Below, piece by piece: positions 1 through 60,692 of a stretch of 64,000 nt of DNA. A model generated the notes under the pieces. That model was not told the origin of the DNA. It saw only the letters and a program-made list of their open reading frames with translations, and ran no database searches. The stretch's first letter is position 1; each line of letters begins with the position of its first letter. Both the position numbers and the translations under genes were made by a program. This DNA comes from Ostreococcus lucimarinus (taxonomy: Eukaryota): NCBI GenBank assembly GCA_000092065.1, contig CP000586.1; one strand, given 5' to 3'.

Positions 1-1109
1 AATTCCGCGCTCTTCTTAATGTGTCTCGTCAACGAATACGACGTTGCCGCGGTGACGAGGCCCTTCAACTCGGCGCCGCTGTAGTTGACCGTGCTCTTCG
101 CCAATTCTTCCAAGTTCACGCAAGGTCCGAGCAAGCCTTCGCTAGCCATAGAGTCGGTGTGAATTTTCAAAATTTGCTGTCGACCGGTGGCGTCCGGCAA
201 GCCGACTTCGACTTGCAACTCTAAACGACCCGGGCGCAAAAGCGCGGGATCGAGCAAGTCTCTTCGGTTGGTGATACCCACGATCAAAATGTTATTCAGC
301 GCGTGCATACCGTCGAGCTTGGTCAAAAGCTGATTCACGACGTTGTCGTGCACGATGCTCGCCGTCTCCCCTCCCGTGCCTCTCGCCTTCATCACCGCGT
401 CGATTTCGTCGAAGACGATGATGTGCAACTTGCTCTTGTCGCCCCTCAACTTTGCCTCCTTCTCCGCATCTTCGAACAACATCCGCACGTTCTCCTCGCT
501 TTGACCGACAAACTTTTGCAAAATTTCCGGTCCATTCACGATCTTCGGCTTGTGCGCGTTCAGCATGTTCCCCAACTGTCTCGCCACGAGCGTCTTCCCC
601 GTCCCCGGCGGCCCGTACAGCAGCACCCCTCGCACGTGTTGCAATTTCAACCTTCTCGCGATGTTCGCGTCCACCATCCTCGACGCGAACACTCGTCTGA
701 ATATATTCGCAAACTCCTTATCCAATCCTCCCACGCCGTGTTCGACGAACGAGCTTCCATCTCGCATCATTCGCGCCAGGTGCGCCTGCGAGCTGTGCTT
801 TTCGCTCTCGTCTTGCTCGGGCACCGTGTTCGCGTTCCCAGCCGCCGGTCCCGTCTTCGCCAGCGTCGGCGTGATCCCGGGCGGCGCCGCGCCGCGTATC
901 GCGCTCTTCGGTTTCGGTTTTTCAAACTTTCGCGGCGTCGGCGCGTCCGTCGTCGCGTCGACTTCGAAATCTTCCGCGCGCCACTGCACGAGGCGCTTTT
1001 GCGTCGCCAGCGCCGTCGTCGCCGCGCCGTCGACGTCGCGTCGCGCGGCGGTGCGCTGAGGCGCGCGAGCGCGCGCGAGCGCGCGCGCGAGGTCACGCGC
1101 GCGATGCAT
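1..1109 (-). CDS. NSF: N-ethylmaleimide-sensitive factor (NSF/Sec18) AAA ATPase, partial (D1 domain onward; C-terminus beyond window start)
   Basis: Minus-strand translation reads ...[92 protein letters not shown]...IVFDEIDAV...[14 protein letters not shown]...[26 protein letters not shown]. This is near-identical to the NSF D1 Walker A/B region. The frame is open up to a TAG at 1263-1265, and the first in-frame ATG is at 1107-1109. The gene is truncated by the window and not listed in the ORF track. The 5' end is uncertain. Confidence 0.85.
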
Positions 1110-1365
1110 CGTCGCTCTCGCGTCGCTCTCGCGTCGGCGTCGGGGCGCGCGCGGCGCGATGACGACGCAGGCTCCCTCGGGACGCTTTTCGGCGCGATGA
1201 CGTCGATTCGGATGACGCGACGACGAACAAAGGCGGGCTGGGATTGAAAGAAGAATGGCTGGCTAAGACGCGCTCGCGGCAGATCGAACGAGGCGCGCGC
1301 GAGCGCGCGAGTGAGCGCTCGCGGCGCCGCGCGCGCGCGCGACGACGACGACGCGCGTCGGGGGA

Positions 1366-2466
1366 TTAACGGTGGCCGAAGGCGTCGTCGCCGTCCAAAC
1401 CGAAGGCGCGCTTGGCGGCTTCGTACGTCGTCCAACAGATGGCGGCGGCTGGGATGTGGAAGAGCACGCGCGCGCTCATGCCGCGAGTGAGGGCGAGCGC
1501 GCCTTCGTCGCGAACGATGGCGCGCGCGACGTCCATCGGGCTGGCGGAACGCACGGCGGCGCTTCGCGCGCGTTGCGCGGCGAGCTCTTGCGGACAAATC
1601 TTGGGCGCGCCTCGCGCCGTGCACACGCTGTTGTACGTCGTTTCCACCGTCTTGGCGACGTCGCAATCGAGTAAAACACATTGCGTTTGCATGCGAGTCT
1701 TGACGACGTCCATGGGCGTCGTCGCCGCCGCCGCTAGACCCCCGGCGACGCCCCCGGCGGCGAATTGCACGGCGAACCCCTCCTTCTCCGCCTCGCTCGC
1801 CTTGAACAGCGCCGTCTTCGCGCTTTCGTACGCCGCGAAGTGGATCGCCGTGAAAGGGACATTCATCGCTAACGTCGTGGGGTAACTTCTATAAAACGCC
1901 CGCACGCCTTCGTTCCGAAACGTCTTCGCCACGCAATCCAGCGCCCCCTTGTACGGCGAATCCGAGATTTGCAGTCGTTGCTTCACCGTATCCACGGGGT
2001 TTTGCAACCCATCCGCGAGCACCGTCGCGCACACTCCCGCGAGCGCGTGCGCGACGGGGGCGTGTTCGTTCACGTTCCCACCCCCGAACGCCACCTTGCA
2101 CTTTTCGTACGTCGCGAAGTACACCGCGTGCGCCGGCCCCGCGCCCAACCCCGCGGCGGACACCCCTCGATACAGCGACCGCACCGCGTTCGCCGCGTTC
2201 GCCGCGGACGCGCGCGCCGTGAGCGTCCCGATCGCTTGCGCGTACGACGTCCCGCTCGCCGCCACCTGCAGGCGCGTTTTAATCGTATCCACCGGGAACA
2301 TCGCCGTGTGCTCGACGGCGCCCGCGAGCGCGCCCGAAGCCATGTGCGCGTAAAACGCCGTCTCCGCGGGCGAATGCGCGACGCACGCGCCGTCGACGGA
2401 CGCGCGCGCCGTCGTCGCGCTCGACGACGCCCGCGCGGCGCGCTCGAGCGCGTCCGAGGGCGTCAT
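1366..2466 (-). CDS. mitochondrial carrier family protein, mitoferrin-like (SLC25A28/37, MRS3/4-type)
   Basis: This is the C-terminal 366 aa of the 722-aa ORF. It carries three carrier repeats with MFPVDTIKTRLQ, NPVDTVKQRLQ and PMDVVKTRMQ signatures, and His residues typical of mitoferrin. An ATG lies at 2464-2466 and a TAA stop at 1366-1368. The upstream 356 codons of the ORF are R/A-rich and not carrier-like. Confidence 0.85.
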   Translation of the reverse strand: MTPSDALERAARASSSATTARASVDGACVAHSPAETAFYAHMASGALAGAVEHTAMFPVDTIKTRLQVAASGTSYAQAIGTLTARASAANAANAVRSLYRGVSAAGLGAGPAHAVYFATYEKCKVAFGGGNVNEHAPVAHALAGVCATVLADGLQNPVDTVKQRLQISDSPYKGALDCVAKTFRNEGVRAFYRSYPTTLAMNVPFTAIHFAAYESAKTALFKASEAEKEGFAVQFAAGGVAGGLAAAATTPMDVVKTRMQTQCVLLDCDVAKTVETTYNSVCTARGAPKICPQELAAQRARSAAVRSASPMDVARAIVRDEGALALTRGMSARVLFHIPAAAICWTTYEAAKRAFGLDGDDAFGHR

Positions 2467-2886
2467 GCGGCGCGATAACGCGTCGTCTCGATCGTCGTGA
2501 CGGCGATCGCGTTCGAGCGCCGACGTCGCCGCGGTCTCGTCGTCGACGGCGCGCGCGGTGCGGCGCGAGGCCGGGCGGTGCGGCGCGCGTCGATGGCGCG
2601 CGTCGGGCGCGGTTTCGTCGCGCGCGCGCGTCGCGACGCGTCGATGAGTGGCGTCGGCGAGTAAACCCTCGAGTTTTCGTCGCGCGCGCGTCAAAAAACG
2701 TCGCGACGCGACGCGCGCGGCGCGCGAGCGACGCCGCGGCGCGGTGAAACGGGCGACGCGAACGCGGCGCGCGAACACGCGCGCGAACGCGCGATTCGGG
2801 CGGCGAAGCGCGGCGAAAAGCGCGCGCGAAGACGCTCGATTTGAACTCGAGCTCGAGCGGTTGGACCGGACGCGGTCGGAGCGACG

Positions 2887-3942
2887 ATGCCGACGCAGTG
2901 CGTGAGCACGGCGGTGATTGGGACGGCGTTTTGCGTGAAACGATGCTCGAGCGAGCGTCTGGCGCGAGATTTGGCGTTTTTCCCGCCGGAACCGCCGAGC
3001 TACGCGCTCGGAGAGCGAGAGGCGAGCGACGACGGGGACGGCGAGCGCGCGGGGACGAGCGATAGTGGAGAGCTCAGAGCGATCGCGAACGAGGAACACG
3101 TGCCGGCGACGTACGCGGCAGCGTTTCAACGCGTGTTGGACGATTTTCGCGTGGATTTGGTGACGACGGCGAGAGGGAACGAGGTGGTGGCGATGACGTG
3201 CGAAGCGCCGCCGACGAGGATATCGGCGGCGAGCGAGGACGACGCTCGAGCGATGCAAGACGGCGCGAACCTGACGTTGATTTACTCGCACGGCAATGCG
3301 GTTGATGCGGGGGAGGTGGCGCCGTTCGCGCGGAAGTTGTCGCAGCAATTGAATTGTCGAGTGGTGACGTACGATTACTCGGGATACGGGCAGAGTCGCG
3401 GCGAGCCGAGCGTGGCTGATACGTACGCGGACATCGATGCCGTCGTCGCGCACGTCATCGAACGCTTCGGAGTGTCGCGCGAGGAAATTATTTTGCTCGG
3501 ACAGTCCATTGGAAGCGGGCCGACGTGTTTTCACGCGGGCAAGCGCGAAAACGCGGGATTCGGCGCGGTCGTTTTGGTTTCTCCGCTTCTAAGTGCCTTG
3601 AACGTCGTGAGCTCGCCGCAAGCGTGGTGCACGCCGGCCAAGGTGTTCAGAAAGATGGACGTGTACAAGAATTATCAAGTCGTGAAGAACATCCAGTGTC
3701 CGATTCTGTTGATTCACGGCGATCAAGACAACGTCGTACACGTGTCTCACGGCGAGACGCTTTGGGAAACCATTCGCAAGAGCGCGAAAACGAACGAATC
3801 GCTTCTCGAACCGTACTGGATTCGAGGCGCCGGCCACGATGATACGTACGATCGTAATCCAGCCGAATTCATTCGAAGATTGCGCGAGGTGTGCGCGCTC
3901 GTACGCGAGAATTGGTACCGCCGCGTCGAAACGGCGCCGTGA
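2887..3942 (+). CDS. alpha/beta-hydrolase, ABHD17/FAM108-like serine hydrolase (depalmitoylase family)
   Basis: YSHGNAVDAGE, nucleophile elbow GQSIGSG, LIHGDQDNVVHV and GAGHDD give a Ser/Asp/His triad in the spacing typical of ABHD17 proteins. ATG is at 2887 and TGA at 3940-3942. The N-terminal start is uncertain because internal Met residues exist. Confidence 0.8.
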   Translation: MPTQCVSTAVIGTAFCVKRCSSERLARDLAFFPPEPPSYALGEREASDDGDGERAGTSDSGELRAIANEEHVPATYAAAFQRVLDDFRVDLVTTARGNEVVAMTCEAPPTRISAASEDDARAMQDGANLTLIYSHGNAVDAGEVAPFARKLSQQLNCRVVTYDYSGYGQSRGEPSVADTYADIDAVVAHVIERFGVSREEIILLGQSIGSGPTCFHAGKRENAGFGAVVLVSPLLSALNVVSSPQAWCTPAKVFRKMDVYKNYQVVKNIQCPILLIHGDQDNVVHVSHGETLWETIRKSAKTNESLLEPYWIRGAGHDDTYDRNPAEFIRRLREVCALVRENWYRRVETAP

Positions 3943-4030: not shown

Positions 4031-4966
4031 TCACGAATCTTCGATGACGTCGAACGCGCCGCTCGCATCCGGAAACGACTTTTGCGCGAACGTCTTCACG
4101 CGTCGAGCGCATCGCAACAGCGTATCGCTCGTGTCCTCGATCGCCACGTACCGTCGCTCGTCCGCCGTCGCGCTCACGCACACCCACGCCTCGTGACCTG
4201 GCTTGACGTACGCGTGCTCTATCGCGTCACCATCGCTCGCGCGCTCGACGTCTCGTCGCAACAGCGCGAGCGTGGACGCCGTGCGCGGATCCATCTCCGT
4301 CCTCGCGCCCGCCGGCGCCGCCGTCGTCAATTCCAAACCTCCCTCGTTCCGCGCGCGCTCGCGACCGTAAAAAACCGCGTATTTATCTAATCCACGCGAC
4401 GTCGCCCCCTCGTCTTCGGCCGCCGCCGCCGCCGCCGCGCCGCTCGCGTTCGCGTTCGCGTTCGCCGCCCGTCGCGGCGCCGTCGCCGTCGCCACCGCCC
4501 GCGTCCACGCCTCCCGTCGCGCGATCCGATCGTCCGCCGCCGCCCCGTTCGTTCGCACGCCCTCTTCGTACGCCTCGACCACGCGCGCGAGCATCGCCCT
4601 GAGTTCGCCGTCGCTCGTCGACCACCGCGGCGCCGCGCCTTCGTCGACGCGCGCGCACGCGTACGAATTCGTCCCGCGCGCCCGCACGCTCGCCACGCGC
4701 GCGCCGCGCGTTCGCGCGACGCTAAACTCCAGCGCGTCCTCGTCGCTCGCGTCGCGCGGCGCGAACGCGCGCGCGATCGACCGCGACGCCAACACGAAAC
4801 CGACGAGTTCGCTCAGCGCGCGCGACGCCGCCGCGCCCTCCGCGCCGTCGCGCGCGCGCGCCGCGCGCGACGACGACGCGAGGACTTTCTCGTGCGTCTC
4901 GCCCTCGCGCGCGGGCGCGATGTCGTCGTCGAACGCGACGACGACGACGTCGCGTCGCGACGCCAT
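4031..4966 (-). CDS. hypothetical protein (no recognisable domain)
   Basis: A 319-aa minus ORF whose listed start is GTG. The first ATG is at 4964-4966 (MASRRDVVVVAFDDD...). The sequence is non-repetitive and the C-terminal half is globular-looking (…YAVFYGRERARNEGG…YVKPGHEAWVCVSATADERRYVAIEDTSDTLL…). It fits the gap between flanking genes. Confidence 0.4.
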   Translation of the reverse strand: MASRRDVVVVAFDDDIAPAREGETHEKVLASSSRAARARDGAEGAAASRALSELVGFVLASRSIARAFAPRDASDEDALEFSVARTRGARVASVRARGTNSYACARVDEGAAPRWSTSDGELRAMLARVVEAYEEGVRTNGAAADDRIARREAWTRAVATATAPRRAANANANASGAAAAAAAEDEGATSRGLDKYAVFYGRERARNEGGLELTTAAPAGARTEMDPRTASTLALLRRDVERASDGDAIEHAYVKPGHEAWVCVSATADERRYVAIEDTSDTLLRCARRVKTFAQKSFPDASGAFDVIEDS

Positions 4967-5453
4967 CGCGGCGCGATGTGCCGACGGCACGACATGACGC
5001 GCGCGCGACCGCGCGACCGCGCGAGCGCGGGCGAACGCGCGCGAACGCGCGCCGCGCGTCTGCGGCGCGCGCTGTGCGCCTGCGCCGCGCTCGGCGCGGC
5101 GTGCGCGGTCGCGGCGGCGGCGCTCGGGTCGTCCGAAAGGGTGTTGAACGCGCGACTGAGCGAAGCCGCGCGGCGCGCGACGCCGGAAGCGGGGCTCGCG
5201 CGCGGGCGCATACGAGCGGTGAGCGAAGCGCGGTTCGCGTCGACGCGCGGCGCGAAGCGCGGGAGGTGGAGGACGCGCGCGCGGGACGACGCGGGAGGCG
5301 ACGCGGCGACGAGGCGCGGGGAGACGGACGACGCGGACGAGACGACGGAACGCAGGTACGACGCGTTCATGCGCGCGGTGGATGAATACGAGGACGTCGA
5401 GGAGGCGGAGGAAGAGGAGGAGGACGACGGCGAGGAGGCGCGGCGGTGGGCGG

Positions 5454-5549
5454 CGATGTTGGGGAAACGGCGCGACGAGTAGTCGTCGTCGCCGCCCGCG
5501 GCGATGTTGGGGAAACGGCGCGACGAGTAGTCGTCGTCGCCGCCCGCGG
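5454..5549. repeat. perfect 48-bp tandem duplication (2 copies)
   Basis: GCGATGTTGGGGAAACGGCGCGACGAGTAGTCGTCGTCGCCGCCCGCG occurs twice in direct succession. It produces the repeated peptide in both overlapping spurious ORFs (…AAMLGKRRDE / …RRFPNIAAGGDDDYSS…). Confidence 0.85.
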
Positions 5550-5572: not shown

Positions 5573-7351
5573 TTACATTTTAGCTTTATTCGTCGCGCGC
5601 GCCGCGCGCTCGAGGAGCAAGTACAGACCACCGCCGAGAAAGAAACTCACGAACCAGGCGTTGGCGTAAAGCCCGCGGAAGAAGGCGGAGCACGCGGGAT
5701 TGGCGCCGACGGCGTGCAAGAAGCCGGGCACGCAGACGCCGGCGCCGACGACGAAACTCGCCAACGCGCGCACGTTGAAGCCGTTGGCGTACCAGTACTG
5801 CGATTTCGCGTCCATGCTATACAGCGCGTCGATGTCCAGGGTTTGCTCGCGAACGAAGAAGTAGTCGGCGATCATGATGCCCGTGATCGGGCCGAGCAAC
5901 GCGGCGTATCCAATCAACCAGACGAAGATGAACCCGTCGCCCGCGGCGAGCTTCCAAGGCATGCACAACGTCCCGAGCGCGGCGGTGATGAAGCCGGCTT
6001 TTCGGAAGCTCATTGAACGGGGACATGCGTTCACCAACGCGTTCGCCGGCGCCACGACGTTGGCCGCGATGTTCGTCGAGAGCGTCGCTAACGACAGACC
6101 GCCCATCGCGAGAAACGTCGTGAGCGGTCCGGTGTTTATGCGCGAAACCAGTTCGATCGGATCGCTGATCGCGCCACCGAAGATGACGACGGTGCATGAC
6201 GTCACCGCCAGCGCTATGAATGAAAACATCGTCATGAACGCCGGCAAACCGACGGCTTGCCCGACGATTTGATCGCGTTGCGATTTCGCGTACCTGGTAA
6301 AGTCTGAAATATTGAGAGAAAGCGTCGACCAAAACCCGACCGTCGCGGTGAGAACGGGGAGCAACGCGCTCCAAAACTCGCCCGCTCGCGCGCCTCCGAC
6401 CGCGAACGCGCTCGGTGCGTCGAATATCGGCCCCACGCCTCCCGCCGCCGTCACCGCCCACGCGAACAACGCGAGCGAGAGCGAAATCAACACCGGCGCC
6501 GCGTACTCCTCGACGCGTCTGATCGACTCTATCCCGTGATACACCACCCACAATTGCGCCGCGAGAAACGTCAAGTAACACACCAACGCCTCGACGCTCA
6601 ACCCGAGCCACGGTAAAACCGTCCCGTTCGCCGCGAATCCCATCGCTCGCGTCATCGTCGCCAGCGCCTGTCCGCCCACGTTGGTCTGTATTCCGAACCA
6701 CCCGCACCCCACGATCGCGCGCGCGAACGTCGCCACGCTCGCTCCTCGCACCCCGAACGCGCTGCGGCAGTACACCGGGAATCCTATCCCGTATTTCGTC
6801 CCCGCCGCGCCGTTCGCGATCATCGGCGCCAGCACGAGCGCGTTCGCGCTCGCCACCACCGCCATCGCCTCCCCCGCCGCGAATCCCACGTCCACCACCT
6901 GCGCCACGAGCGTCCACGCGGGCACGCACACGACCAATCCGACCCACAGCGACGCCACGTCGCGCAGCGCGAACGTCCGCGCGCTCGCCAGCACGGGTTT
7001 TAAATCATCATTCGTCAGCGACGCGTCGGGCGACTCGGGTTCGACCGCCGCGATCGCCCACCGCGCCGCGCGCTCGGACGCGCGCGCCGCGCATCGCCGA
7101 CGACGCGACGGCGCGACGCGCGCGCGCGCGCGAAGAGGCGCGCGCGCGACGAGACGCACCGTCGTCGTCATGCAATGCCGTCGTCCGCGACGCGAACGGC
7201 GCGACGACGCGCCACACCGCGGCGCGCATGGCGTCCGTCGGGTTCGACGACGACGACGACGACGCGGACGATGGGTTCTGGGCGCGCGCGGGGAGGTGCG
7301 CGCGACGCGCGACGCGACGCGCGACCGCGAGCGGACGCGTCGATTCGTCAT
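5573..7351 (-). CDS. nucleobase:cation symporter-1 (NCS1) family permease (purine/uracil/allantoin permease, PLUTO/Fur4-like)
   Basis: There are 12 predicted TM segments with an NCS1-like core (…GIGFPVYCRSAFG…, …FAWAVTAAGG…, …NISDFTRYAKSQRDQ…). The N-terminal ~110 aa are R/S-rich and presequence-like. The first ATG is at 7349-7351; the listed start 7354 is TTG. TAA is at 5573-5575. Confidence 0.8.
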   Translation of the reverse strand: MTNRRVRSRSRVASRVARTSPRAPRTHRPRRRRRRRTRRTPCAPRCGASSRRSRRGRRHCMTTTVRLVARAPLRARARVAPSRRRRCAARASERAARWAIAAVEPESPDASLTNDDLKPVLASARTFALRDVASLWVGLVVCVPAWTLVAQVVDVGFAAGEAMAVVASANALVLAPMIANGAAGTKYGIGFPVYCRSAFGVRGASVATFARAIVGCGWFGIQTNVGGQALATMTRAMGFAANGTVLPWLGLSVEALVCYLTFLAAQLWVVYHGIESIRRVEEYAAPVLISLSLALFAWAVTAAGGVGPIFDAPSAFAVGGARAGEFWSALLPVLTATVGFWSTLSLNISDFTRYAKSQRDQIVGQAVGLPAFMTMFSFIALAVTSCTVVIFGGAISDPIELVSRINTGPLTTFLAMGGLSLATLSTNIAANVVAPANALVNACPRSMSFRKAGFITAALGTLCMPWKLAAGDGFIFVWLIGYAALLGPITGIMIADYFFVREQTLDIDALYSMDAKSQYWYANGFNVRALASFVVGAGVCVPGFLHAVGANPACSAFFRGLYANAWFVSFFLGGGLYLLLERAARATNKAKM

Positions 7352-7375
7352 CAAGATGACGCGCCGACGACGACG

Positions 7376-7396
7376 ACGACGACGACGCGCGCGATG
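7376..7396. repeat. (GAC)7 trinucleotide microsatellite
   Basis: This sits in the divergent NCS1/coiled-coil intergenic region. Further (GAC)6-7 runs lie at 7246-7263 and 7459-7479, and another at 46527-46547. Confidence 0.8.
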
Positions 7397-7458
7397 GCGC
7401 GACGAACGCGTCGCGACGACGACGACGATGCGCGCGCGAACGTGACTGACGAAATCGC

Positions 7459-7479
7459 GACGACGACGACGACGACGAC
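7459..7479. repeat. (GAC)7 trinucleotide microsatellite
   Basis: cgacgacgacgacgacgacgaca lies immediately upstream of the 7483 GTG. Confidence 0.8.
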
Positions 7480-7620
7480 AGCGTGTTGGACGCGGTGGAG
7501 GAGAGCCTGACGCAGCGGCGACGCGGCGACGAGACGGCGACGACGACGAAGGCGACGACGAACGCGCGCGGAACGACGCGCGGAGACGATGGGACGACCG
7601 CGAGCGAGGAGTTGCGACAG

Positions 7621-9675
7621 ATGCTGATCGAGCGCGACGCGCGGTTGGGGATGCTGCGGTCGAAGTTGGATATGGTGGAGCGCGAGAATGAAAATTTGAA
7701 GCGAAACGGCGCGAGCGCGAGCGGCGACGGCGGCGGAGGGGCGCGGGGGGGGGCGGGGGAGGTGAATTACGGCGCGGTGGGGGGGGCGAATGGGGCGAAC
7801 GCTCGCGCGGCGCCGACGTCGACGAACGCGGCGAGCGTCGTGGCGAAGGCGGAGGTGCAGGATTTAAAGCAGCAGTTGGCGACGCTTCGATCGAAGTTGG
7901 CGTTTAAAGAGGAAGAGATCACCGAGGCGCGCAGGCTGGAGGACGACGCGCGAGCGAAGTTGCGCGCGGCGAATGACGAGCGCACGAAACTCGCCGCGGA
8001 AGTTCGCGCCGAACGCCGGGCGAGGGCGTCGGCGGGACAAAAGCGACCGTCGCGAGACGAGAGCCAAGAGACGGCGGCGAACAAGCGACAGAGAACGGGC
8101 GGCGCAAGCGGTGGGGATGTGTTAGGAAGCGAAGCGCGAGTTGGTGAACGTACGACTGGAATGAGCGCTGGTGGCAGTCATCGACGCGCGCGCGAAGGTT
8201 TGAGCGTGGCGTCGCCGCCCGAAACGCTCGCGTTGGCGCTTCCGATGGCGCCGCCCGACGTCGCGGCGACGCTGTACCAACGCGGCGTCAGCGGGTATTA
8301 CTCGAGCGATAACGTCTTCGCGCGGTTGATGAACGACGTTCCGCTCGATGTGAGTTCTTTTTTAGCGAAACCAAACGAATCATCGGTCGTGAGTGCGGAG
8401 TTGGTGAACCCCGTGCGCGCGGCGCTCATGAATTTGGCGACGAATCCGGATTCGACGGTGGCGCTCACGCGCGCGCTCGTCGAGTCCATCGTAGAAACAT
8501 CGAATTCCATCACGTCTTCGGCGCACTACGCGCACGTGACGTCGATATTGCGAATTCTTTCCGCGCTCGCGATGATTGATGGGCGAAGCCTGAGCATCGT
8601 GCTCGGCGCGTGCGGGGCGCAGAGAAATCAAACCGTCGCGACGGTCACAGCGCACGGGTCGCCGCCAGCGTCTTTGGCGGGGATTCCCGGTTTAGGCGGA
8701 GCGGGCATGGGTACGCTCGTCGCGCATCCGCGCGCACACAGCGGTCGTATCTTCGTTCCGGCGTCCATGAGTTCGACGAATCACGCGTCCGCGCCGACGC
8801 CAAAACCGACGAAGACGACGAAGAGCAGGTTGTCGGGGAGCCAAGGGGGAGAGGCACCGGAGGTGGCGCCGTTTTTGGAGACATTGATACAGTTACTCAC
8901 CGATGCGAAGTGTGATGGTCAGTGGCGCGTCGTCGACGCCGTGATCGTGGCGCTCATTCGATTCGCGAGCGGTGTGGGCGTGGAGAATGGCCGGGGCGCG
9001 TTTGGCGCCGTGGCGCAAAAGCACAGCGGCTTTGGATCGTGCCTGAAATCGATCGCCCCGAACAGCACACGGTTCTTGGCGCTCATGCTCATTCGAATGT
9101 TGGCGCCCACGCCCGAATTTCAGTCGTTCCTCTGTGAACCACTCGACGTCGAGCGAGGGATTGAAAAGCCGCCGACGCCTGAACGGCGCAAGCGAGCGAC
9201 GTTGTTCGCCGCGATTCTGAGTTGCCTCCGAGCAGATTGCGTGGAGGAAAACGGCTTGATCTTCGTCATTAAGTCCTCATACGTGGCGCACGCCACGCCT
9301 GAGCAGAGCGGCACGCTTCAAGAGGCGGCGCTCCGCGTGTTAAGAACGCTCGCCTTCATCGGCTGGTCCGAGTACGGCGCCGCCGCCGTCGCCGTCAACG
9401 CCCTCGACGTCCTCGCCGCCGTCGCCGTCGAAGAGTACGTCTCCCCGCTCCCCGTGGCGCACTCCAAATCATCAACAGCCCTTCACCAAGCCACCAGGCT
9501 CGTCCACGCCCTGCTCGACGAGCACTACGACGCCCATCTTCCTCGCCTCTTGGGCGCTCGCAAGAGTCAGCGCGTCATCGCCCGTCTCGCCCACCTGAGT
9601 TCCGCCAGCGGCGGCGGTCGCGAATCTCGCATGGCCGATTGGCTCGGCCGCATTTTACTCAAGGTGCGCGAGTGA
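7621..9675 (+). CDS. hypothetical coiled-coil protein with C-terminal alpha-helical (HEAT/ARM-like) region
   Basis: The 730-aa ORF starts with GTG at 7483; the first ATG is at 7621 (MLIERDARLGMLRSKLDMVERENENLKRNG…). Heptad-rich N-terminal segments (…LKQQLATLRSKLAFKEEEITEARRLEDDARAKLRAANDERTKLAAEVRAE…) are followed by a long helical region. I could assign no confident family. Confidence 0.55.
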   Translation: MLIERDARLGMLRSKLDMVERENENLKRNGASASGDGGGGARGGAGEVNYGAVGGANGANARAAPTSTNAASVVAKAEVQDLKQQLATLRSKLAFKEEEITEARRLEDDARAKLRAANDERTKLAAEVRAERRARASAGQKRPSRDESQETAANKRQRTGGASGGDVLGSEARVGERTTGMSAGGSHRRAREGLSVASPPETLALALPMAPPDVAATLYQRGVSGYYSSDNVFARLMNDVPLDVSSFLAKPNESSVVSAELVNPVRAALMNLATNPDSTVALTRALVESIVETSNSITSSAHYAHVTSILRILSALAMIDGRSLSIVLGACGAQRNQTVATVTAHGSPPASLAGIPGLGGAGMGTLVAHPRAHSGRIFVPASMSSTNHASAPTPKPTKTTKSRLSGSQGGEAPEVAPFLETLIQLLTDAKCDGQWRVVDAVIVALIRFASGVGVENGRGAFGAVAQKHSGFGSCLKSIAPNSTRFLALMLIRMLAPTPEFQSFLCEPLDVERGIEKPPTPERRKRATLFAAILSCLRADCVEENGLIFVIKSSYVAHATPEQSGTLQEAALRVLRTLAFIGWSEYGAAAVAVNALDVLAAVAVEEYVSPLPVAHSKSSTALHQATRLVHALLDEHYDAHLPRLLGARKSQRVIARLAHLSSASGGGRESRMADWLGRILLKVRE

Positions 9676-12900: not shown

Positions 12901-15900
12901 GCGAGCTTCGTCAATCGAAGCGGGTTGCGATTGAGTATCGATAGTTTCGGGATCACGAGCGTGCGTGGAGTGAGCGTGAGCTTTAACAAGCCCGGCACGG
13001 CGCTGCGTAGGGTGCAGATTGCGGAGATTGCGTACGTGGGGAACGCGTCGACCATCGTGACGTGGTTGTTGAATTTCGCGTTGCGCAAGGCGAGCGGGAA
13101 GCATTTACGGGATGATTTGCCGCGCGTGGGTGAAAAGAATGGTAAAACCAGAAGTAAAAGTGATGATGGGTTCGCGGAGATGACGCCTCGTGGTAACGAT
13201 AGTCCGTCATCGGATGGAACGCCGGCGAGCGGACGAAGACGGTTCATACGCTTTGGCGTCGGATCGCTCAAGGCGGCGTTCGTGGTGTCGGGCGTAGAAA
13301 TTACGACGCGGAGTAAAGCCGACATAAATACGGAGGATGGGTTGCAAAAGCAGTCGTCTGATTTAGGTCGCGCAAAAATGACGAACACTAAAAAGAAGGC
13401 GATGACGCGCGGCAAGTGGAGATTGATGAAGGGCATCGCGTCCTTTGTCGACATCACGGTCGTATCGCTGACGGTGCGCGAAGAAGATGATGATGACGTC
13501 GACATGTTGTTTTGTGATAAACTCACGTTTGAAGCGTCTGGCAAGGCCGGAGCTTCGCTGAAATTCCTCATCACGGCACGTATGCTGCGAGGCAAGGATG
13601 GTTGGAGCATGACAGACACCAACGTGAACCTCGTCGCGGAGTTTGATTCCGAGACGAAAACTATCGTACCTGTGCACGCGGGATTGAGTGGTTCGACCTT
13701 GTCTCTCGTGAAGCGTGTTGGCGAGCGAGCGAAGAAGATCGAGACGAAAACAGATTTGGCGCCGATTACCGTCAAACAACAGCAAGGTCCGCACAAGGCT
13801 GTGAGGGGTCTACTCAAAGTGCCGAGGAAATGCAAGATAGAATTTAAACGCGTCGTGATGGAGAATAAGAACCAGGAAGCACCGTTGACTGGCGTGATGA
13901 CGCATATGCAATTCTCGGTCGAGAGAGTGAGCGCGTCCAAAAAGGGATTTCGTCTCTTTCGAAAGCAACAGCAAGTCGTCTCGCCGTTTGCCTCCACGGC
14001 GTTCGAGGCGGACGCGTGGGCAGAGGTGAATATGTCCGTGGCGGATGCAAAATTAGTGCATGGAAAGCATCAGACATTAGCTCTCATCAACGCGCCGAGT
14101 GCCTCGGTATTCTTGTCGCTTTCAGAGAAAGCACTCGGCGACGGCGGCAAATTGCCCGCCACCGCAACGTTTACGGTGGATTCGTGCGATTTTAGGCACC
14201 ATGCCGATGCGGCAGATTTAGTCGCTGCGTTAAAGGCGCAGAAAACGAAATCAAGAAACGGCTCCACTAAGTCGACGAACACAAAAAAGAACTCGGCGCC
14301 GTGGGACGTCGTCGATGCGCAGATGATGTGCAAAACGTCGCTATGCGCGAGAATGTACGACGAGCACGGGGCAACATCGTGTCAGTTTCTCACCGAGCAG
14401 ATTCGTGGTCGATATGGAAATTTAGTCGATGAAGGGACGTGTATGCTAGTTAGTTCGAGCGCGTCAGACAAGCGCGGCGTGTGCACGATGTCACGCGTAC
14501 AAGTGACGGTTCCCGGTTACCACCCCGTCGTGCAGATTGAAGCCATCAGCGTTGCGCTATCCGAAGCTGCCGGAAACGCGGTTGAGTTGTCGGAAACTAC
14601 CATCGATTTGAACATGAACGAAGCAGGTGAACTCGCAAAGAAGATTGATGCCGTCGCGAAGCGCGCCAAGGCAACCATGGCGAGCGCAAAAGGCGATTCG
14701 TCTGACAAGGCGACGTCTTCAAATAAGGTGAAGAAATCTACACGCGTCATCTTGGTCGACACAGCGATGCGTGCTCGATGCACGATGACGCCTTACTCGA
14801 CGTTCGGTGAGATACCGCAAAACTCGCGCGGCGATGAGCCTGTAGAGTGCGCGCTCGACATAAGTTGTCCGCTCGCAGAGATGTCGCAGCCGGAGGCAAA
14901 CTTAACGAGAATGGCGGCGGGTGGTTTCACAGTCTCTATGTACGACACCATTCAAAGACCCGCCAAAGCCGAAGAGGCGAAGAAAGATTCGCGGTGGGTC
15001 GGACGAGTCAATTACGAAGAAGTCGCGGTAGAGAACAACCGCGTGATGCTAGTCGGAAGTCTCGATGTTGAGTACAAACAAGGCGCCAACAAGCGCGCGG
15101 CAGTATCCGTGGAAGGCGTCGAATTTGATTGGGAACCGGATGCGCATTTTCTCGCACTAGAAATTTCAAACCTGGCAAAGGCTGCAAAGCCAGCAAAGAT
15201 GTCGACTGACGGTACGCAAAACGCCTCGAAGGATCAAACAAAATTGGATCTTTCGTTTGACGTGCGCAAAGTCAGCGGCTCGTTCTTTGTCACGCCGGGC
15301 GCGTGCGCGCAAGTATCATTTGGACTTATGGACGCGCGCCCACTCGAAAAAACGTGCTGCGTGAGAGATGTGACTTTTGGTATGAACGGATACACGATAA
15401 CGGAGTTAGAATTGATCTCCGTAACTCAAGACGAGTGCGAACGCACGTTGCCTCATGTCGCAGCGATCACACACGAAGACGCCGAAGACATCGCCAGGCG
15501 CCGCAAGTTTCAAATTGTGGTTGAGAAGGCAAAGCTCATGCTTCCCGCAAACTTAGACCTCGGCGACGCCATGGTAGCCATGATTATAGGCGAAGCGGTA
15601 TTCTCCGACGTCGTGAAAACGACTGGGAAGCGCGCAAAGAAGGAGCGAATTTCGTTGGCTGCCAATTTACCCGCCTGCGCCGAATCGTCTCCGTCAAAAC
15701 CGGCGACTGAAATCAATGTCAAGGTCAGCAGTATCGAAATTGAAGTCGAAGACTCGAATGATTTGGAGCGTTTTATGCGTGCAAAGCAAGCTGCATTGGG
15801 ATCTTGCATCGCGGCCGCGGAGTTTACGTCTTCCACTGAAGAGGCGATGCGAAGCATCACCACGACGTATCTCCAGCATAAGGAATTCTTAGCAAACGGC

Positions 15901-18900
15901 GGTGGCTCCGCGTTGCACATGGATATAGGCAGCGTCACCTCTACGGCAGTGTGGGGAGGTGGTAAAGGCGATGGTGATGAGCTCACAGCGAAAGCAGGCG
16001 CGCACGTACGTCGTGTGGATGCTCCGTATAGCGATTCTGTGTCTTTGCAGATGCAAAACGTTTTGACGATGCACACAAGCGTAACCGAAATGCGCGTCTG
16101 CGTGGCGGATTTGACCGCACGTCCTATTTTCATGTGTAGTGAAGCCACGATCGCAGGGACATTTGTGCAGGCTAGACAATACGCCCCGCGCATATTGACG
16201 GGACAAGTTGCCCTCCCTGTCGGACGAAGACGATGGGCGAAGACAAACGGACCCGACACGCCTTCGCGACCGACGGCGATGTGGTACACAGATGCGACTT
16301 TTGACATCAAAGAAGCTGATATATTTGTGGCGACGTGCATTGAGCCGTATTTGTTCAATGTGTCGCGAGAGCTCACGACGAGACTCGTCCTTCCACGCCT
16401 GCACAAGCACATTCCAGGAGGCGGAGGTGGACGTCCGCCGACGAAGGAATACGATCGAAACAATCCCAGACCGCCGAGCATGCCCTGGTGGGATATTTTG
16501 AGAAGTCAGTGGCGCGGATTAATGCGTATAACGATGATTCAGTCCGGTGCGAAGGTGGATAGTCAAGGACAGATTGAGCATCTCGGCGCGCACGGGGGAG
16601 ACTCGTTTGCGAGCGAGCTAGAGATTTTCGCCGACATGTGGGAGTTCGACATGAAGCCGCGCAACGTGGTCATTCGTAGCGCGAACTTCACGATATCAAG
16701 AATTCAAGATGATGAAGAGTGTACCGAAGCTTCGACGCCACGCGCGGATGAACCATCGCCGAAGCATAAGTTGGTCATCTTCCCGGTCATGTGCGTCAAG
16801 GCAGATTACGAATTCAAAGCCCTCCTCGATGGCGGCGATGGTCATCGTACGCACTACAGACACGACTCAACGACTGGAAAGGAGCTTTTCTCCAGAGATT
16901 TGACGCGCTCAAGTGCTTGTTTTGTGAATCTCGATGTCGATCTGGCGTCCATGGAAGAGTTCGTCACGAAAATGGTCAACGCCGCGACCATGGATCGCTT
17001 CGTCGAATACGTGAGAAATCTTACCACTGACGTGCCATCGTTCGAACACCAGGGCCACTATTCGAATCCGACCATAGCGCTGACACCAGATGACGTTGAG
17101 TTCATGAAACAATGGGAACATGGGATGAAGAAGCCAATGGTCGCGCTGCGGTCGATCTGGAACTTGCGACCGTGGGGCGCCCCGCGACGGGTAAAACACC
17201 CAGAATCGATAAGTTTGGTTGACTTGTTCGCAAGCATCGACACTGTCATCACCTCGAGCGTCATTCATGTGGTGAACGCTTCGAGCGACGAGACAGCTAA
17301 TGCGTACGGGGCGTGTTTCTGTCTCAAATCGGTGCATTGCGTCGCGAAAAAAGCGCCTCGGACCAAGGTGGAATTCACCCTGCGAGCAGATTCGTCGCAA
17401 TTCCACGTGCCTGAGCGTGACGGCAGTCTCGAACGTAAGGGATCGAGTCCACGTCGCCTCGCTAATCTTCGCGCTGGATCTATTACCAACAGACTGAACT
17501 TTGCAGAGCTCGACGACGTCGTCAAAGAGATGTTGCAAGGAAGCGCCAAGAGCCCGTCACAGGCAGATGATGGATCGGCTTCGCGCCCGACGTCCACGGA
17601 TCCAACGTTGGTATTAGACACGAAAAGACTCGAGATTACTCAGCGCAATGAAGATTCAGTGGCCAGCCAGGGCATTCAGATCGAAGTTGACGCTCCTCGG
17701 ATCTTAATTGAAGCCGAACAGCGGAACGCTATCCTCGGCTGGATCAACGCCATTTGGACGGCGGCGCAGACGGAAAGACGCGAGCCGACTTGGACCGAGC
17801 TCAATCGCATCCTAAAGTCAGCGGATAAACTGTCGGGAGTGAGTCGACGTCGCCGTGAATTAGACGATATCATGGGCGATGGACCAAGTTTGCACGCGCT
17901 AAGTGCGGAAGAGACGCTCGAAAAGAATTACGAATCACCGAAACGTGCGACGGAAGCTGTTGTGCTCTTCGTCATTCAAATCACCGCTCCGCAAATCAAT
18001 TTTAAGGGCAAAGATGCCGCTGGTCGAATGTTACTCGCAGCCGAAGGCGGACTTGTGGTTGGTAGACGAATGGACGACGGCGGTTCGACGGGTCGTCGTC
18101 TCGTCACGGTATCTTTACAACAAGTTCAAGCGTACGTGGCGCCGACGAACGTCGACTTAAACGCCGGTGTGCAGTGGTTGCGGGAAAATCATTCTTCGGT
18201 GGATGGCATACATACTTCTTTGGTTCGTGACGACGTATTCGAAAGTGGCGACGGTCGCAAAGAATCAGGTTCGCTCTTGCGACGCATTTTCGCTCCAGGT
18301 TCGATGGTTTTTGAGCACGCAAACGCCGTCACAGCGACGCAAAGTCGCATAACCGACGCCGAGTTGTACGCGTACAACGAGCCGACGGAGGCTGATGTTC
18401 AGGCTTTCGGTAAGCGCACGGCGAGCGAGACCAAAGGGGAAGCGGTGAGCCAATTTTCAATGCGTTCTCCCGAAATCGTCGCGGAAATGAATTCGAGCCA
18501 GTACGTTGTTTTGATCGACGTCATGGCGAGCCTATTCTTGACACCAGCGGCTTTGGAGCGTCCTCGACCGAGCTTTCAGGCTTCAAAGGTTTTGATGAGT
18601 CGTGATCGAACGTTGAGTGACACGGTTGCGCTTGAATCTTCAGCTATCGTCGCGAAACCGATGATGAAGTTGATGGCCGCTCGCTGGGCGGTGGAGAGTA
18701 TGGAGAAGAATTATCGCCGCGCGGTCGCTCTGGCGCCGAGCGAAAAGCAGAAAGTCCTTCGTGAAATCGATGTCCTTTGGTCCGCTGCGCAGAAGGCTGA
18801 GTTGCGCGTCCTCGCTGCGGTGCATCAAGCCGAAGAGAACGATAGGCTCTATCGGCGGCACTCCGCGATTCGATTAAGTCTCGAAATCGAACACGCGGCT

Positions 18901-20160
18901 TGGACTTTGTGGCAGGGTGGGAGTCCTTTCATCTCCGCTCAGCTCTCGCGACTGTCGCTTTCGCGCGAACGCCAGGTTGACTCTTCTGGGATGCTGCGAT
19001 TTAAGCTGCACGGTTTAAGTATGGTGTCGCTCGATGAAGGCTGCGTCGATCAGATGTTTTCTCGCTGGATTCCACCGGGAAGCGTGCACGAATCACGCGC
19101 GCGTAACGACGCGCCGTTGATTGACTTTTTCTCCATCCGCGCGGGATCGGCGCCGGAGAAACCGGTATACGACCATTTGGAGCTGAGTGTGCAACCGTTC
19201 GAGGTGGACATCAAGCACTCGCAGTACAAAATGATTTACCAATATCTCTTTCCAATGACGAAGTCCAGCGATCACGACGCGTTTGAGAATGTTTACAGGC
19301 GTCCGGCGCTCGCCAAGAATGCGGAGATGTCGCCGCGCGAGAGCTTGATTCGGGCGCAATCTATAAACGCAAAGGGTGTGCATCTGACGCCGCTTGAATT
19401 GCCGTCGGAGATGTCGGCGTCAAAGCATCGGCGACGATGGCGTTGGAACGAAGAAAAAGATGAAGTTCTCGAAGAGTTTGAAGACGTGCATGCGAAAAAG
19501 GGCGAAAAGGGTATTGATCACAAAACCGTACTTTTGCGCTATTTCAGAATTCATCCTCTGCACATGGAGATGACGTACGAAGGCAAATCACGCGGGTTCA
19601 GAGACTTGCAACTCGGCGTCGACGCCTTTGCGTACGAAAACTTTTCCGGTCGCTGGCGTGACTTGACGTCAGAGCTTAAAAACCACATCGTATGGAGCGT
19701 GTTGAAATCGCTCGTCGGCTTTCGAGGAAAGTTTGTCGAGAGCAAGATCGATGACACGCAGTCCATCTTCATGCGCGTCGCGGAGCGGTTGAAGAAAACT
19801 GCCAACTTGCTCCCGAAGCCCAAACCAGAAACTTCCAGCGGCGCCGAGCACGATTCCGAGTCGGAGACGGCCGTCGACGACCGAATTAAGTCGCAGACGT
19901 CCCAGGCCGAACTCTTTCGCACCGGATGGAACGACGTCGACGTCGATATCGAAGTACCGCGCGGCGATGGTCGAAAAGCGCCGTCGCGACGCTTCTCGAG
20001 GAAGAAGAAGAAACCTCGCCGCATCCGCCCAATCAAAAACACCAAGAAATTCCTCGCCACGGTCGGCATTGGCTCCTACACGCCGAGCGGTGCCGAGGGA
20101 ACGCCTTCTTTGCGCAGCCGCACCGAAGTCATCGACGCGTGGTCCACCCCAAACTTGTAA
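12901..20160 (+). CDS. SABRE/KIAA0100/Fmp27/Hobbit (BLTP2-type bridge-like lipid transfer protein) homolog, exon 2 (main body, ~2419 codons)
   Basis: The continuous 7.2-kb ORF begins ASFVNRSGLRLSIDSFGITSVRGVSVSF, matching the KIAA0100 N-terminus (…KIGSFRFFWIQNVSLKF…) right after the TM helix. The protein has the very large repetitive beta-rich body and C-terminal Apt1/FMP27-like region expected for this family. Total size is about 2466 aa. Acceptor CAG is at 12898-12900 and a CTGAC branch motif sits ~22 nt upstream. TAA is at 20158-20160. Confidence 0.7.
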   Translation, partial: ASFVNRSGLRLSIDSFGITSVRGVSVSFNKPGTALRRVQIAEIAYVGNASTIVTWLLNFALRKASGKHLRDDLPRVGEKNGKTRSKSDDGFAEMTPRGNDSPSSDGTPASGRRRFIRFGVGSLKAAFVVSGVEITTRSKADINTEDGLQKQSSDLGRAKMTNTKKKAMTRGKWRLMKGIASFVDITVVSLTVREEDDDDVDMLFCDKLTFEASGKAGASLKFLITARMLRGKDGWSMTDTNVNLVAEFDSETKTIVPVHAGLSGSTLSLVKRVGERAKKIETKTDLAPITVKQQQGPHKAVRGLLKVPRKCKIEFKRVVMENKNQEAPLTGVMTHMQFSVERVSASKKGFRLFRKQQQVVSPFASTAFEADAWAEVNMSVADAKLVHGKHQTLALINAPSASVFLSLSEKALGDGGKLPATATFTVDSCDFRHHADAADLVAALKAQKTKSRNGSTKSTNTKKNSAPWDVVDAQMMCKTSLCARMYDEHGATSCQFLTEQIRGRYGNLVDEGTCMLVSSSASDKRGVCTMSRVQVTVPGYHPVVQIEAISVALSEAAGNAVELSETTIDLNMNEAGELAKKIDAVAKRAKATMASAKGDSSDKATSSNKVKKSTRVILVDTAMRARCTMTPYSTFGEIPQNSRGDEPVECALDISCPLAEMSQPEANLTRMAAGGFTVSMYDTIQRPAKAEEAKKDSRWVGRVNYEEVAVENNRVMLVGSLDVEYKQGANKRAAVSVEGVEFDWEPDAHFLALEISNLAKAAKPAKMSTDGTQNASKDQTKLDLSFDVRKVSGSFFVTPGACAQVSFGLMDARPLEKTCCVRDVTFGMNGYTITELELISVTQDECERTLPHVAAITHEDAEDIARRRKFQIVVEKAKLMLPANLDLGDAMVAMIIGEAVFSDVVKTTGKRAKKERISLAANLPACAESSPSKPATEINVKVSSIEIEVEDSNDLERFMRAKQAALGSCIAAAEFTSSTEEAMRSITTTYLQHKEFLANGGGSALHMDIGSVTSTAVWGGGKGDGDELTAKAGAHVRRVDAPYSDSVSLQMQNVLTMHTSVTEMRVCVADLTARPIFMCSEATIAGTFVQARQYAPRILTGQVALPVGRRRWAKTNGPDTPSRPTAMWYTDATFDIKEADIFVATCIEPYLFNVSRELTTRLVLPRLHKHIPGGGGGRPPTKEYDRNNPRPPSMPWWDILRSQWRGLMRITMIQSGAKVDSQGQIEHLGAHGGDSFASELEIFADMWEFDMKPRNVVIRSANFTISRIQDDEECTEASTPRADEPSPKHKLVIFPVMCVKADYEFKALLDGGDGHRTHYRHDSTTGKELFSRDLTRSSACFVNLDVDLASMEEFVTKMVNAATMDRFVEYVRNLTTDVPSFEHQGHYSNPTIALTPDDVEFMKQWEHGMKKPMVALRSIWNLRPWGAPRRVKHPESISLVDLFASIDTVITSSVIHVVNASSDETANAYGACFCLKSVHCVAKKAPRTKVEFTLRADSSQFHVPERDGSLERKGSSPRRLANLRAGSITNRLNFAELDDVVKEMLQGSAKSPSQADDGSASRPTSTDPTLVLDTKRLEITQRNEDSVASQGIQIEVDAPRILIEAEQRNAILGWINAIWTAAQTERREPTWTELNRILKSADKLSGVSRRRRELDDIMGDGPSLHALSAEETLEKNYESPKRATEAVVLFVIQITAPQINFKGKDAAGRMLLAAEGGLVVGRRMDDGGSTGRRLVTVSLQQVQAYVAPTNVDLNAGVQWLRENHSSVDGIHTSLVRDDVFESGDGRKESGSLLRRIFAPGSMVFEHANAVTATQSRITDAELYAYNEPTEADVQAFGKRTASETKGEAVSQFSMRSPEIVAEMNSSQYVVLIDVMASLFLTPAALERPRPSFQASKVLMSRDRTLSDTVALESSAIVAKPMMKLMAARWAVESMEKNYRRAVALAPSEKQKVLREIDVLWSAAQKAELRVLAAVHQAEENDRLYRRHSAIRLSLEIEHAAWTLWQGGSPFISAQLSRLSLSRERQVDSSGMLRFKLHGLSMVSLDEGCVDQMFSRWIPPGSVHESRARNDAPLIDFFSIRAGSAPEKPVYDHLELSVQPFEVDIKHSQYKMIYQYLFPMTKSSDHDAFENVYRRPALAKNAEMSPRESLIRAQSINAKGVHLTPLELPSEMSASKHRRRWRWNEEKDEVLEEFEDVHAKKGEKGIDHKTVLLRYFRIHPLHMEMTYEGKSRGFRDLQLGVDAFAYENFSGRWRDLTSELKNHIVWSVLKSLVGFRGKFVESKIDDTQSIFMRVAERLKKTANLLPKPKPETSSGAEHDSESETAVDDRIKSQTSQAELFRTGWNDVDVDIEVPRGDGRKAPSRRFSRKKKKPRRIRPIKNTKKFLATVGIGSYTPSGAEGTPSLRSRTEVIDAWSTPNL

Positions 20161-60569: not shown

Positions 60570-60692
60570 TCCGCGTCGAAGAATGCGCGACGACGCACGC
60601 AAAGACCTTGGACTTTGCTTTGACTGAGAAAAAAGACGATTCGGCTAAAAATAAAACACGCACTGCATTCAGCGACGTGCGGCGCGCGGAAG
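60570..60692. promoter_or_regulatory. putative bidirectional promoter/5'UTR region shared by the dynein heavy chain (-) and RIIa-domain protein (+) genes
   Basis: Only ~123 bp separate the two divergent ATGs. The region is AT-richer than its flanks (…gactgagaaaaaagacgattcggctaaaaataaaacacgcactgcattcag…). Confidence 0.4.

Follow-up and report, generated by a model that had tools for sequence, protein, structure and literature searches.

Introduction

Can an NSF-type ATPase exist without the domain through which NSF finds its substrates? The question is raised by one end of a stretch of 64,000 nucleotides from the green alga Ostreococcus lucimarinus (contig CP000586.1 of assembly GCA_000092065.1), referred to here in its full length as the window. 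The minus strand at this end carries a gene for an NSF-type ATPase that is without the canonical N-domain, which consists of a double-psi barrel and an alpha/beta roll and occupies about 205 amino acids (aa) ahead of the D1 domain. NSF has been treated as a near-universal singleton, and it is the N-domain that defines how the protein finds its only known substrates, the SNAP-bound SNARE complexes (PMC5070193; bioRxiv 10.1101/2024.08.20.608744). Multiple NSF paralogs have been called "very rare" in a 2024 preprint (bioRxiv 10.1101/2024.08.20.608744). The comparisons described below indicate that the window gene represents a real and conserved NSF lineage lacking the N-domain (hereafter, N-less).

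The missing N-domain

An earlier reading of this DNA, made from the letters alone (the sequence-only reading), had placed an NSF-like frame on the minus strand, with its first ATG at 1109, a frame stop at 1263 and the end of a neighboring mitochondrial-carrier gene at 1366. Three-frame translation of bases 1-3000 bears out all of these positions: the open reading frame (ORF) has its only in-frame ATG at 1109 and an upstream TAG stop at 1265..1263. The window holds just the beginning of the gene; three further contigs (L004-L006), whose DNA matches that of the window at 99.7-99.8% identity, contain all of it and give a full-length product of 663 aa. Its first 369 aa, as encoded on L004, are the same as those encoded in the window, and from residue 114 to residue 663 it does not differ from XP_001418564.1 of O. 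lucimarinus CCE9901 (UniProt A4RZF0, "Vesicle-fusing ATPase"). The 663-aa protein is laid out as a 113-aa extension, followed by D1 (about residues 125-400) and by a D2 domain with the P-loop GPTGSGKT, and the only Pfam matches within the 369 aa encoded by the window are AAA and AAA_lid_3.

The absence of the N-domain was established by several comparisons. When searched against the PDB with phmmer, residues 115-631 of the query aligned to residues 212-716 of Chinese hamster ovary (CHO) NSF with 410 bits, and residues 114-621 to residues 232-725 of yeast Sec18 with 421 bits. About 211 N-terminal residues of canonical NSF, comprising the entire N-domain, have no counterpart in the paralog. A hidden Markov model (HMM) of 209 positions, built from 49 canonical NSF N-domains, was run on six-frame translations of the whole window (best E 0.4) and of the roughly 10 kb surrounding the orthologous gene in six loci from three genera (L001-L006), and matched nothing in either. 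Of 23 N-less proteins it matched none, the best hit (E 0.42) falling at the wrong position. As a control, the same model detected 14 of 14 canonical NSFs with E values from 6e-50 to 7e-32. Pfam searches likewise gave no CDC48_N or CDC48_2 match in the N-less proteins, CDC48_N being detected in the control proteins, namely the NSF of C. merolae and the canonical NSFs of Mamiellales. The sequence-only reading had seen nothing resembling an N-domain in any minus-strand frame of 780-1366, and the empty six-frame search upholds that statement.

The D1 and D2 domains

Assignment of the gene product to the NSF-type D1-D2 ATPases, rather than to Cdc48, VAT or AFG2, is indicated by both sequence and structure comparisons. 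VAT (301 bits) and Cdc48 (293 bits) were matched by phmmer over D1 only, whereas the higher-scoring matches to Sec18 and NSF span D1 and D2. The best 50 Foldseek matches were all NSF/Sec18 D1 domains, with 59-60% identity over about 245 aligned columns. These best matches agree with the NSF-type identity that had been proposed for the minus-strand gene from its letters.

D1 is 57-60% identical to the D1 of canonical NSF and retains the Walker A and Walker B motifs, sensor 1, the Arg fingers and the aromatic pore loop KFVGQSE, the catalytic residues being invariant among 30 family members. The ratio of nonsynonymous to synonymous substitutions (dN/dS) is 0.06 in D1, which is under strong purifying selection, and 0.24 in D2. 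The D2 P-loop is nearly invariant throughout the N-less family, in which D2 shows an identity of only 27-38%; in Mamiellales the N-less D2 evolves fast and has lost the motif of the PIGPRFSN/GPRFSN type.

A canonical NSF in the same lineages

One check proposed in the sequence-only reading was a search for a second, full-length NSF, and canonical NSFs with an N-domain were indeed found both in Bathycoccus prasinos and on contigs of the Ostreococcus type. Among the matches to a profile searched against 1.84 billion representatives was P0215, an NSF of the green type, 744 aa long and encoded without introns, whose locus, L133, has the N-domain. Used in turn as a query, P0215 retrieved a B. prasinos "unnamed protein product" of 761 aa (P0399, CDC48_N E 1.8e-8) and two groups of abundant marine proteins with 63-71% identity. 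According to the HMM, P0399, the L133 NSF and both marine groups all carry the N-domain, and canonical NSFs with this domain are also present on Micromonas-type contigs. The contigs of group B share the synteny of L133, with an Atx10 homolog (-) next to NSF (+) and a radical-SAM gene downstream in L133, L137 and L138. Their codon usage is Ostreococcus-like: the relative synonymous codon usage (RSCU) correlates with that of the window genes at 0.955 for L134 and 0.945 for L137, the split-half control within the window giving 0.946. The canonical gene occupies a locus distinct from the N-less one, in a conserved gene order of its own (Atx10 homolog / NSF / radical-SAM). Since the canonical NSF coexists with the N-less gene, the window gene is a paralog and not the sole NSF of the cell. 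In published counts, O. tauri has two NSFs, and Chlamydomonas, rice and Arabidopsis have one each (Kienle, Kloepper and Fasshauer 2016, Table S1, PMC5070193), a difference on which the text of that work is silent.

The canonical genes of Mamiellales have peculiarities of their own. They read DEAILRPGRLE (L133 2979-5213, P0399, P0415 and others) where the other canonical NSFs examined have ALLRPGRLE, and because of this replacement they were missed by a degenerate DNA pattern for a 15-residue NSF motif, which yielded 120 loci on metagenome contigs and no canonical NSF of Mamiellales. The best candidates from that pattern were ruled out by codon usage and exact look-ups, which assigned them to Cyanidioschyzon merolae (L086) and to marine protists (L034, L085). 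On viral contigs the pattern found only low-GC NSF genes of giant viruses or contaminants. Such low-GC contigs from metagenome-assembled genomes (MAGs) of giant viruses (IMG/VR L128, L129 and L132) encode NSF homologs, of which that of L129 is a complete ORF of 741 aa with an N-terminal region, and that of L132 has the variant FRRVFA, as in the N-less clade. Moreover, the Ostreococcus-type canonical ORFs (L134 5947-8160; L135 3504-5690; L137 5971-8151) are open for 9-18 codons before the called Met, and these upstream codons lie inside the conserved "ELALTN" N-terminus without an ATG. A small 5' exon probably supplies the first few codons of these canonical genes.

Conservation, spread and age of the N-less family

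Comparison with orthologs from related algae, another check that the sequence-only reading had named, revealed the same N-less architecture and the same gene order in three genera. The genes keep the order hydrolase (-) / carrier (+) / N-less NSF (+) on a contig of a sister clade of Ostreococcus (L001), on a GC-rich, Micromonas-type contig of 1.9 Mb (L002) and on a Bathycoccus contig of 1.0 Mb (L003), as well as on L004-L006. The 90% cluster of the L003 gene includes B. prasinos CAL6387024.1, and more than 300 contigs, from NCBI, JGI, ENA, Logan and Tara, encode a protein identical to the window type. When the two Ostreococcus clades are compared, the start Met falls at the same place in the alignment and no indel disturbs the frame, and the upstream spacer is unalignable. 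Two irregular copies were encountered: in the L001 ortholog (5769-7757) an in-frame stop stands exactly at the D1/D2 junction, where the window type has Glu, and the cluster member P0169 has a frameshifted D2. Both are probably assembly errors, although the former may reflect loss of D2 in the sister Ostreococcus clade.

Beyond these genera, the representative search separated four N-less clusters (one of Ostreococcus, two of the Micromonas type and one of the Bathycoccus type), with 755-869 bits, from the canonical NSFs, with 467 bits or less. Seven further N-less representatives were added by a D1 tree, and a family-profile search contributed the named members CYMTET_13937 of Cymbomonas tetramitiformis and TSEL_013725 of Tetraselmis striata, together with an MMETSP transcript and many other clusters; P0241, P0313, P0315 and P0345 are among the additional N-less clusters. 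The "N-short" matches of about 606 aa that followed five relatives in the first homology search are not N-less relatives but fungal Sec18 proteins that had been cut short by gene calling blind to introns. A neighbor-joining (NJ) tree of 51 taxa, 20 of them N-less, was built from 517 columns of D1 and D2 with 100 bootstraps. It recovered the N-less clade in 100/100 replicates, the N-less Mamiellales in 100, and the canonical Mamiellales, also in 100, inside the green NSFs; N-less and canonical Mamiellales were grouped together in 0/100. Within the N-less clade the topology was (Cymbomonas,(Bathycoccus,(Micromonas,Ostreococcus))), with the Tetraselmis-containing group separate, and it mirrors the relationships of the organisms, Pyramimonadales and Mamiellophyceae being sister groups in the green-algal phylogeny. 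The N-less sequences are marginally nearer to green canonical NSFs (distance 0.91-0.94) than to non-green ones (1.00). Since a single N-less clade spans these chlorophyte lineages, the tree dates the duplication before the split of the lineages of Mamiellales, Cymbomonas and Tetraselmis.

The N-terminal extension

The place of the N-domain is taken by an A/R/P/T-rich extension. The sequence-only reading had noted the A/R/P-rich character of the frame upstream of D1, and this stretch divides into two parts: 1109..771 is predicted to be translated as the N-extension, and 1262..1110 does not code but belongs to the untranslated leader. AlphaFold2 (AF2), run on an alignment of 30 family sequences, predicts residues 18-107 to be disordered, with a predicted local distance difference test (pLDDT) below 50 and no secondary structure. 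A short helix is predicted at residues 3-14, and another, of low confidence, at 101-117, directly ahead of D1, for which the pLDDT is about 70-90. The extension evolves fast, with a dN/dS of 0.66. An alignment identified three motifs in it, EKPK(P/A)K, GPAAGNxN..PE and SQxHLxxM, whose conservation is confined to Mamiellales.

The first residues are of a different kind. The N-terminal 30 residues have a net charge of +4 to +5 across the orthologs (+5 in the window protein), and no hydrophobic signal peptide was found in the N-terminal segment, in which the maximum hydropathy stays below 0.5. Every complete ortholog (about 20) starts in this Arg-rich, signal-peptide-free manner, one example being MMARRFISNIGPSLL...LRSYSS, and the sequence itself is not conserved. 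Because the character is conserved while the sequence is not, as is the case in targeting peptides, the N-terminus can be described as targeting-peptide-like, and import into an organelle by means of an N-terminal presequence is plausible.

Two public gene models obscure these features. XP_001418564.1 starts at the internal Met114 and thereby drops the entire N-extension, and B. prasinos CAL6387024.1 (P0176, 1066 aa) fuses the N-less NSF with a downstream purple-acid-phosphatase gene. The label "vesicle-fusing ATPase" and the internal-Met reference model both hide the divergence from canonical NSF.

Proposed function and alternative explanations

The model that we favor, to which we assign somewhat better than even chances, is that the gene encodes a functional and ancient NSF paralog that would act independently of SNAP, being imported into an organelle by a cleavable presequence and working there as an unfoldase or disassembly machine. 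The interface between the NSF N-domain and alpha-SNAP in the 20S complex is the established docking mode, and loss of the N-domain predicts a failure of SNARE disassembly; canonical docking of alpha-SNAP would be impossible because the N-domain is missing. An intact D1 motor with its pore loop and a D2 with its P-loop lead one to expect a hexameric threading machine, in which the hexamer would be held together by D2 and substrates would be threaded through the D1 pore without SNAP adaptors, and hence would not be chosen in the canonical way. For import, the N-terminus with its conserved Arg-rich, amphipathic character would serve as the cleavable presequence, with the mitochondrion favored over the plastid as the destination on the look of the presequences. 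Once imported, the protein would function as an unfoldase or in the disassembly of complexes, and the short motifs of the extension (EKPKPK, GPAAGNxN..PE) might be sites for partner binding. A broader proposition is more tentative, and we regard it as rather doubtful: that an endosymbiotic organelle of several chlorophyte lineages (Mamiellophyceae, Cymbomonas and Tetraselmis) takes up a hexameric unfoldase that derives from NSF and works independently of SNAP.

Three other explanations have very little in their favor. That it is an artefact of assembly or annotation, or a decaying NSF pseudogene, might be suggested by the in-frame stop of L001 and the frameshifted D2 of one cluster member; against this stand an identical 663-aa ORF on hundreds of independent contigs, the D1 dN/dS of 0.06 with catalytic residues invariant in 30 sequences, and the synteny kept across genera, so that this explanation is effectively refuted. 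The possibility that the N-less gene is the organism's sole NSF, with Mamiellales recycling SNAREs without an N-domain, draws on a D1 that is still 57-60% identical to canonical D1, but it is refuted by the N-domain NSFs in conserved synteny in B. prasinos and on Ostreococcus- and Micromonas-type contigs, and by the two NSFs recorded for O. tauri (PMC5070193). A little less remote, and still very improbable, is that the N-domain is supplied from elsewhere, by an upstream or distant exon, by trans-splicing or by a separate N-domain polypeptide that associates with the ATPase. The canonical Ostreococcus NSF ORFs seem to need a small 5' exon, so short 5' introns occur in this genome, a point that bears on the idea only indirectly. 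It is opposed by the failure of the HMM to find an N-domain anywhere in the 64 kb of the window or within the roughly 10 kb that surround the gene in six loci from three genera, by the mere 224-256 bp that separate the gene from the preceding one in the two Ostreococcus-type loci measured (the window and L001), by the alignment of the start Met between Ostreococcus clades with an in-frame stop upstream of the ATG, and by the fact that the N-domains found belong only to complete canonical NSFs. The sequence-only reading had left a choice between N-domain exons beyond the neighboring gene and a paralog that carries a disordered or targeting-like extension instead of the N-domain. The former is contradicted by the same empty searches and by a spacer that is not conserved between Ostreococcus clades, and the latter is supported by the architecture and gene order kept in three genera, by the predicted disorder and by the separate canonical NSF, the targeting role of the extension being putative.

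The alternative that deserves most attention accepts the N-less paralog but leaves it in the cytosol, where the disordered extension would act as a tether whose short linear motifs recruit another adaptor or a membrane, or where the protein would modulate canonical NSF in mixed hexamers. We consider it unlikely, if far less so than the explanations above. The conserved motifs of the extension (EKPKPK, GPAAGNxN..PE and SQxHL) speak for this alternative, since they look more like binding sites than like a simple spacer, and further considerations weigh against organelle import: the Ostreococcus N-terminus has 3 acidic residues among its first 30, the reference gene model starts at Met114, a start that would remove the presequence, and presequence-like N-termini are common and not diagnostic. 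With regard to the antiquity of the lineage, the tree was built from distances alone, and given the long branch of the N-less clade, long-branch attraction could account for part of its separation; and no named N-less member from Chlamydomonas, Chlorella or land plants scored above the canonical NSFs among the best 120 matches listed, a comparison that did not include a genome-wide tBLASTn. Against the cytosolic alternative, the Arg-rich, signal-peptide-free character of the N-terminus is kept in every complete ortholog despite sequence change, and the motifs of the extension are conserved within Mamiellales only. Finally, D2, the oligomerization domain, has diverged strongly from the canonical one (27-38% identity even within the clade), which makes mixed rings with canonical NSF unlikely.

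The locus and its surroundings

The positions of the features are collected in Table 1. The carrier stop, TAA at 1368..1366, lies on the same strand as the paralog, 256 bp from its ATG, and the mitoferrin-like carrier and the N-less NSF are same-strand neighbors in three genera. The syntenic block of Ostreococcus and Bathycoccus also holds genes for a purple acid phosphatase, CCB3/YggT and IGPS. The adjacent alpha/beta-hydrolase protein (2887..3942) recurs letter for letter on many contigs from marine metagenomes, listed in 1,248 blocks of the collection, and L004-L006 are three of these loci.

Table 1. Features at the N-less NSF locus, in positions of the window
Feature	Position	Strand	Basis or remark
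N-domain-less NSF paralog, coding sequence	1..1109	-	Residues 1-369 of 663; window edge at base 1 cuts off the end of D1 and D2
Residues 1-17, predicted Arg-rich amphipathic helix, organelle-presequence-like	1059..1109	-	Charge, AF2, character of orthologs
Residues 18-113, rest of the fast-evolving N-extension	771..1058	-	AF2 disorder, dN/dS, motif alignment
EKPKPK motif	923..906	-	Mamiellales alignment
12-residue motif (GPAAGNxN..PE) in the N-extension	851..816	-	Mamiellales alignment
SQAHLARMM motif	791..765	-	Continues beyond Met114; Mamiellales alignment
MMRDG, internal Met114/115	756..770	-	Alternative shorter start; XP_001418564.1 (P0161) begins here
D1 AAA+ ATPase domain (partial)	3..737	-	Pfam AAA, E 5e-34
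D1 motif GVGGLD	737..720	-	
D1 motif FRRVFASR	701..678	-	
Walker A, GPPGTGKT	614..591	-	
Pore loop, KFVGQSE	515..495	-	
Walker B	419..399	-	
Sensor 1, GITNR	278..264	-	
Arg fingers, LLRPGRLE	242..219	-	
Intergenic spacer, 256 bp	1110..1365		3' end of the carrier, promoter and leader of the paralog; without N-domain coding capacity
Mitoferrin-like mitochondrial carrier (SLC25A28/37-type), 366 aa	1366..2466	-	Pfam Mito_carr, E 4.8e-66; names of matching database entries; conserved syntenic partner

Two other properties of the window were observed. Its spacers (1001-1500, 2251-3000, 4251-5500 and 6751-7500) are richer in GC (0.72-0.79, CG-repeat-like) than its coding sequence (0.55-0.62), an unusual inversion of the common pattern. 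There are, in addition, two very long uninterrupted ORFs, one of 4657 aa at 46629-60602 (-) and one of 2411 aa at 12925-20160 (+), the latter being the counterpart of a Hobbit-domain gene on L004.

Significance and comparison with known systems

Literature searches by organism, by "NSF paralogue" and by accession returned no description of the missing N-domain, the extension or the distribution of the family, and no localization or proteomic data for it; the N-less NSF family is apparently undescribed. What was already known amounts to the database entry named above and to the count of O. tauri NSFs in one supplementary table (PMC5070193). Selection maintains this natural and ancient N-less lineage in free-living eukaryotes that rank among the most gene-poor, which implies a second, SNAP-independent job for the D1-D2 motor. 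For AAA+ and membrane-traffic research the lineage is a natural experiment in which NSF can be studied without its adaptor, and Ostreococcus tauri is genetically tractable. Should the presequence be real, the protein would be a new component of algal organelle proteostasis or membrane dynamics. The broader model, if true, would represent the first recruitment of the NSF lineage into a mitochondrion or plastid. An NSF-like factor for membrane or vesicle dynamics inside the plastid has long been sought, and if the plastid were the organelle concerned, the protein would be a concrete candidate for it.

With canonical NSF/Sec18 the paralog shares the tandem D1-D2 AAA+ arrangement, a D1 with the full catalytic set and the D2 P-loop. 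It differs in that NSF residues 1-211 are absent and are replaced by the presequence-like extension of 113 aa that is predicted to be disordered, in that its D2 in Mamiellales is without the PIGPRFSN-type motif, and in its separate clade and separate locus. The domain content is the same as that of the engineered N-truncated NSF of the domain dissections of the 1990s, D1-D2 constructs that hexamerize and hydrolyze ATP but cannot bind SNAP-SNARE complexes. While those are laboratory constructs, the truncation of the paralog is natural, ancient and selected, and it is accompanied by a new N-terminal extension.

Two further systems involve Cdc48-family relatives. The plant Spaf-like protein is a Cdc48-family member from which the N-domain disappeared in the course of green-lineage evolution (PMC5070193); unlike the paralog, it is a different family member, it retains its N-domain in Mamiellales (PMC5070193) and it has no presequence-like extension. 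The sCdc48 proteins of SELMA are Cdc48 paralogs whose destination has become the periplastid compartment of red complex plastids (PMC5070193), and they resemble the paralog in being duplicated type-II AAA ATPases of the Cdc48/NSF family in which a new N-terminal targeting sequence goes together with a new compartment (PMC5070193). They belong to Cdc48 and not to NSF, keep their N-domain and use a bipartite signal, and their localization is experimentally established, whereas that of the paralog is inferred. They are the closest functional precedent for the way in which an N-less NSF may work in a new compartment.

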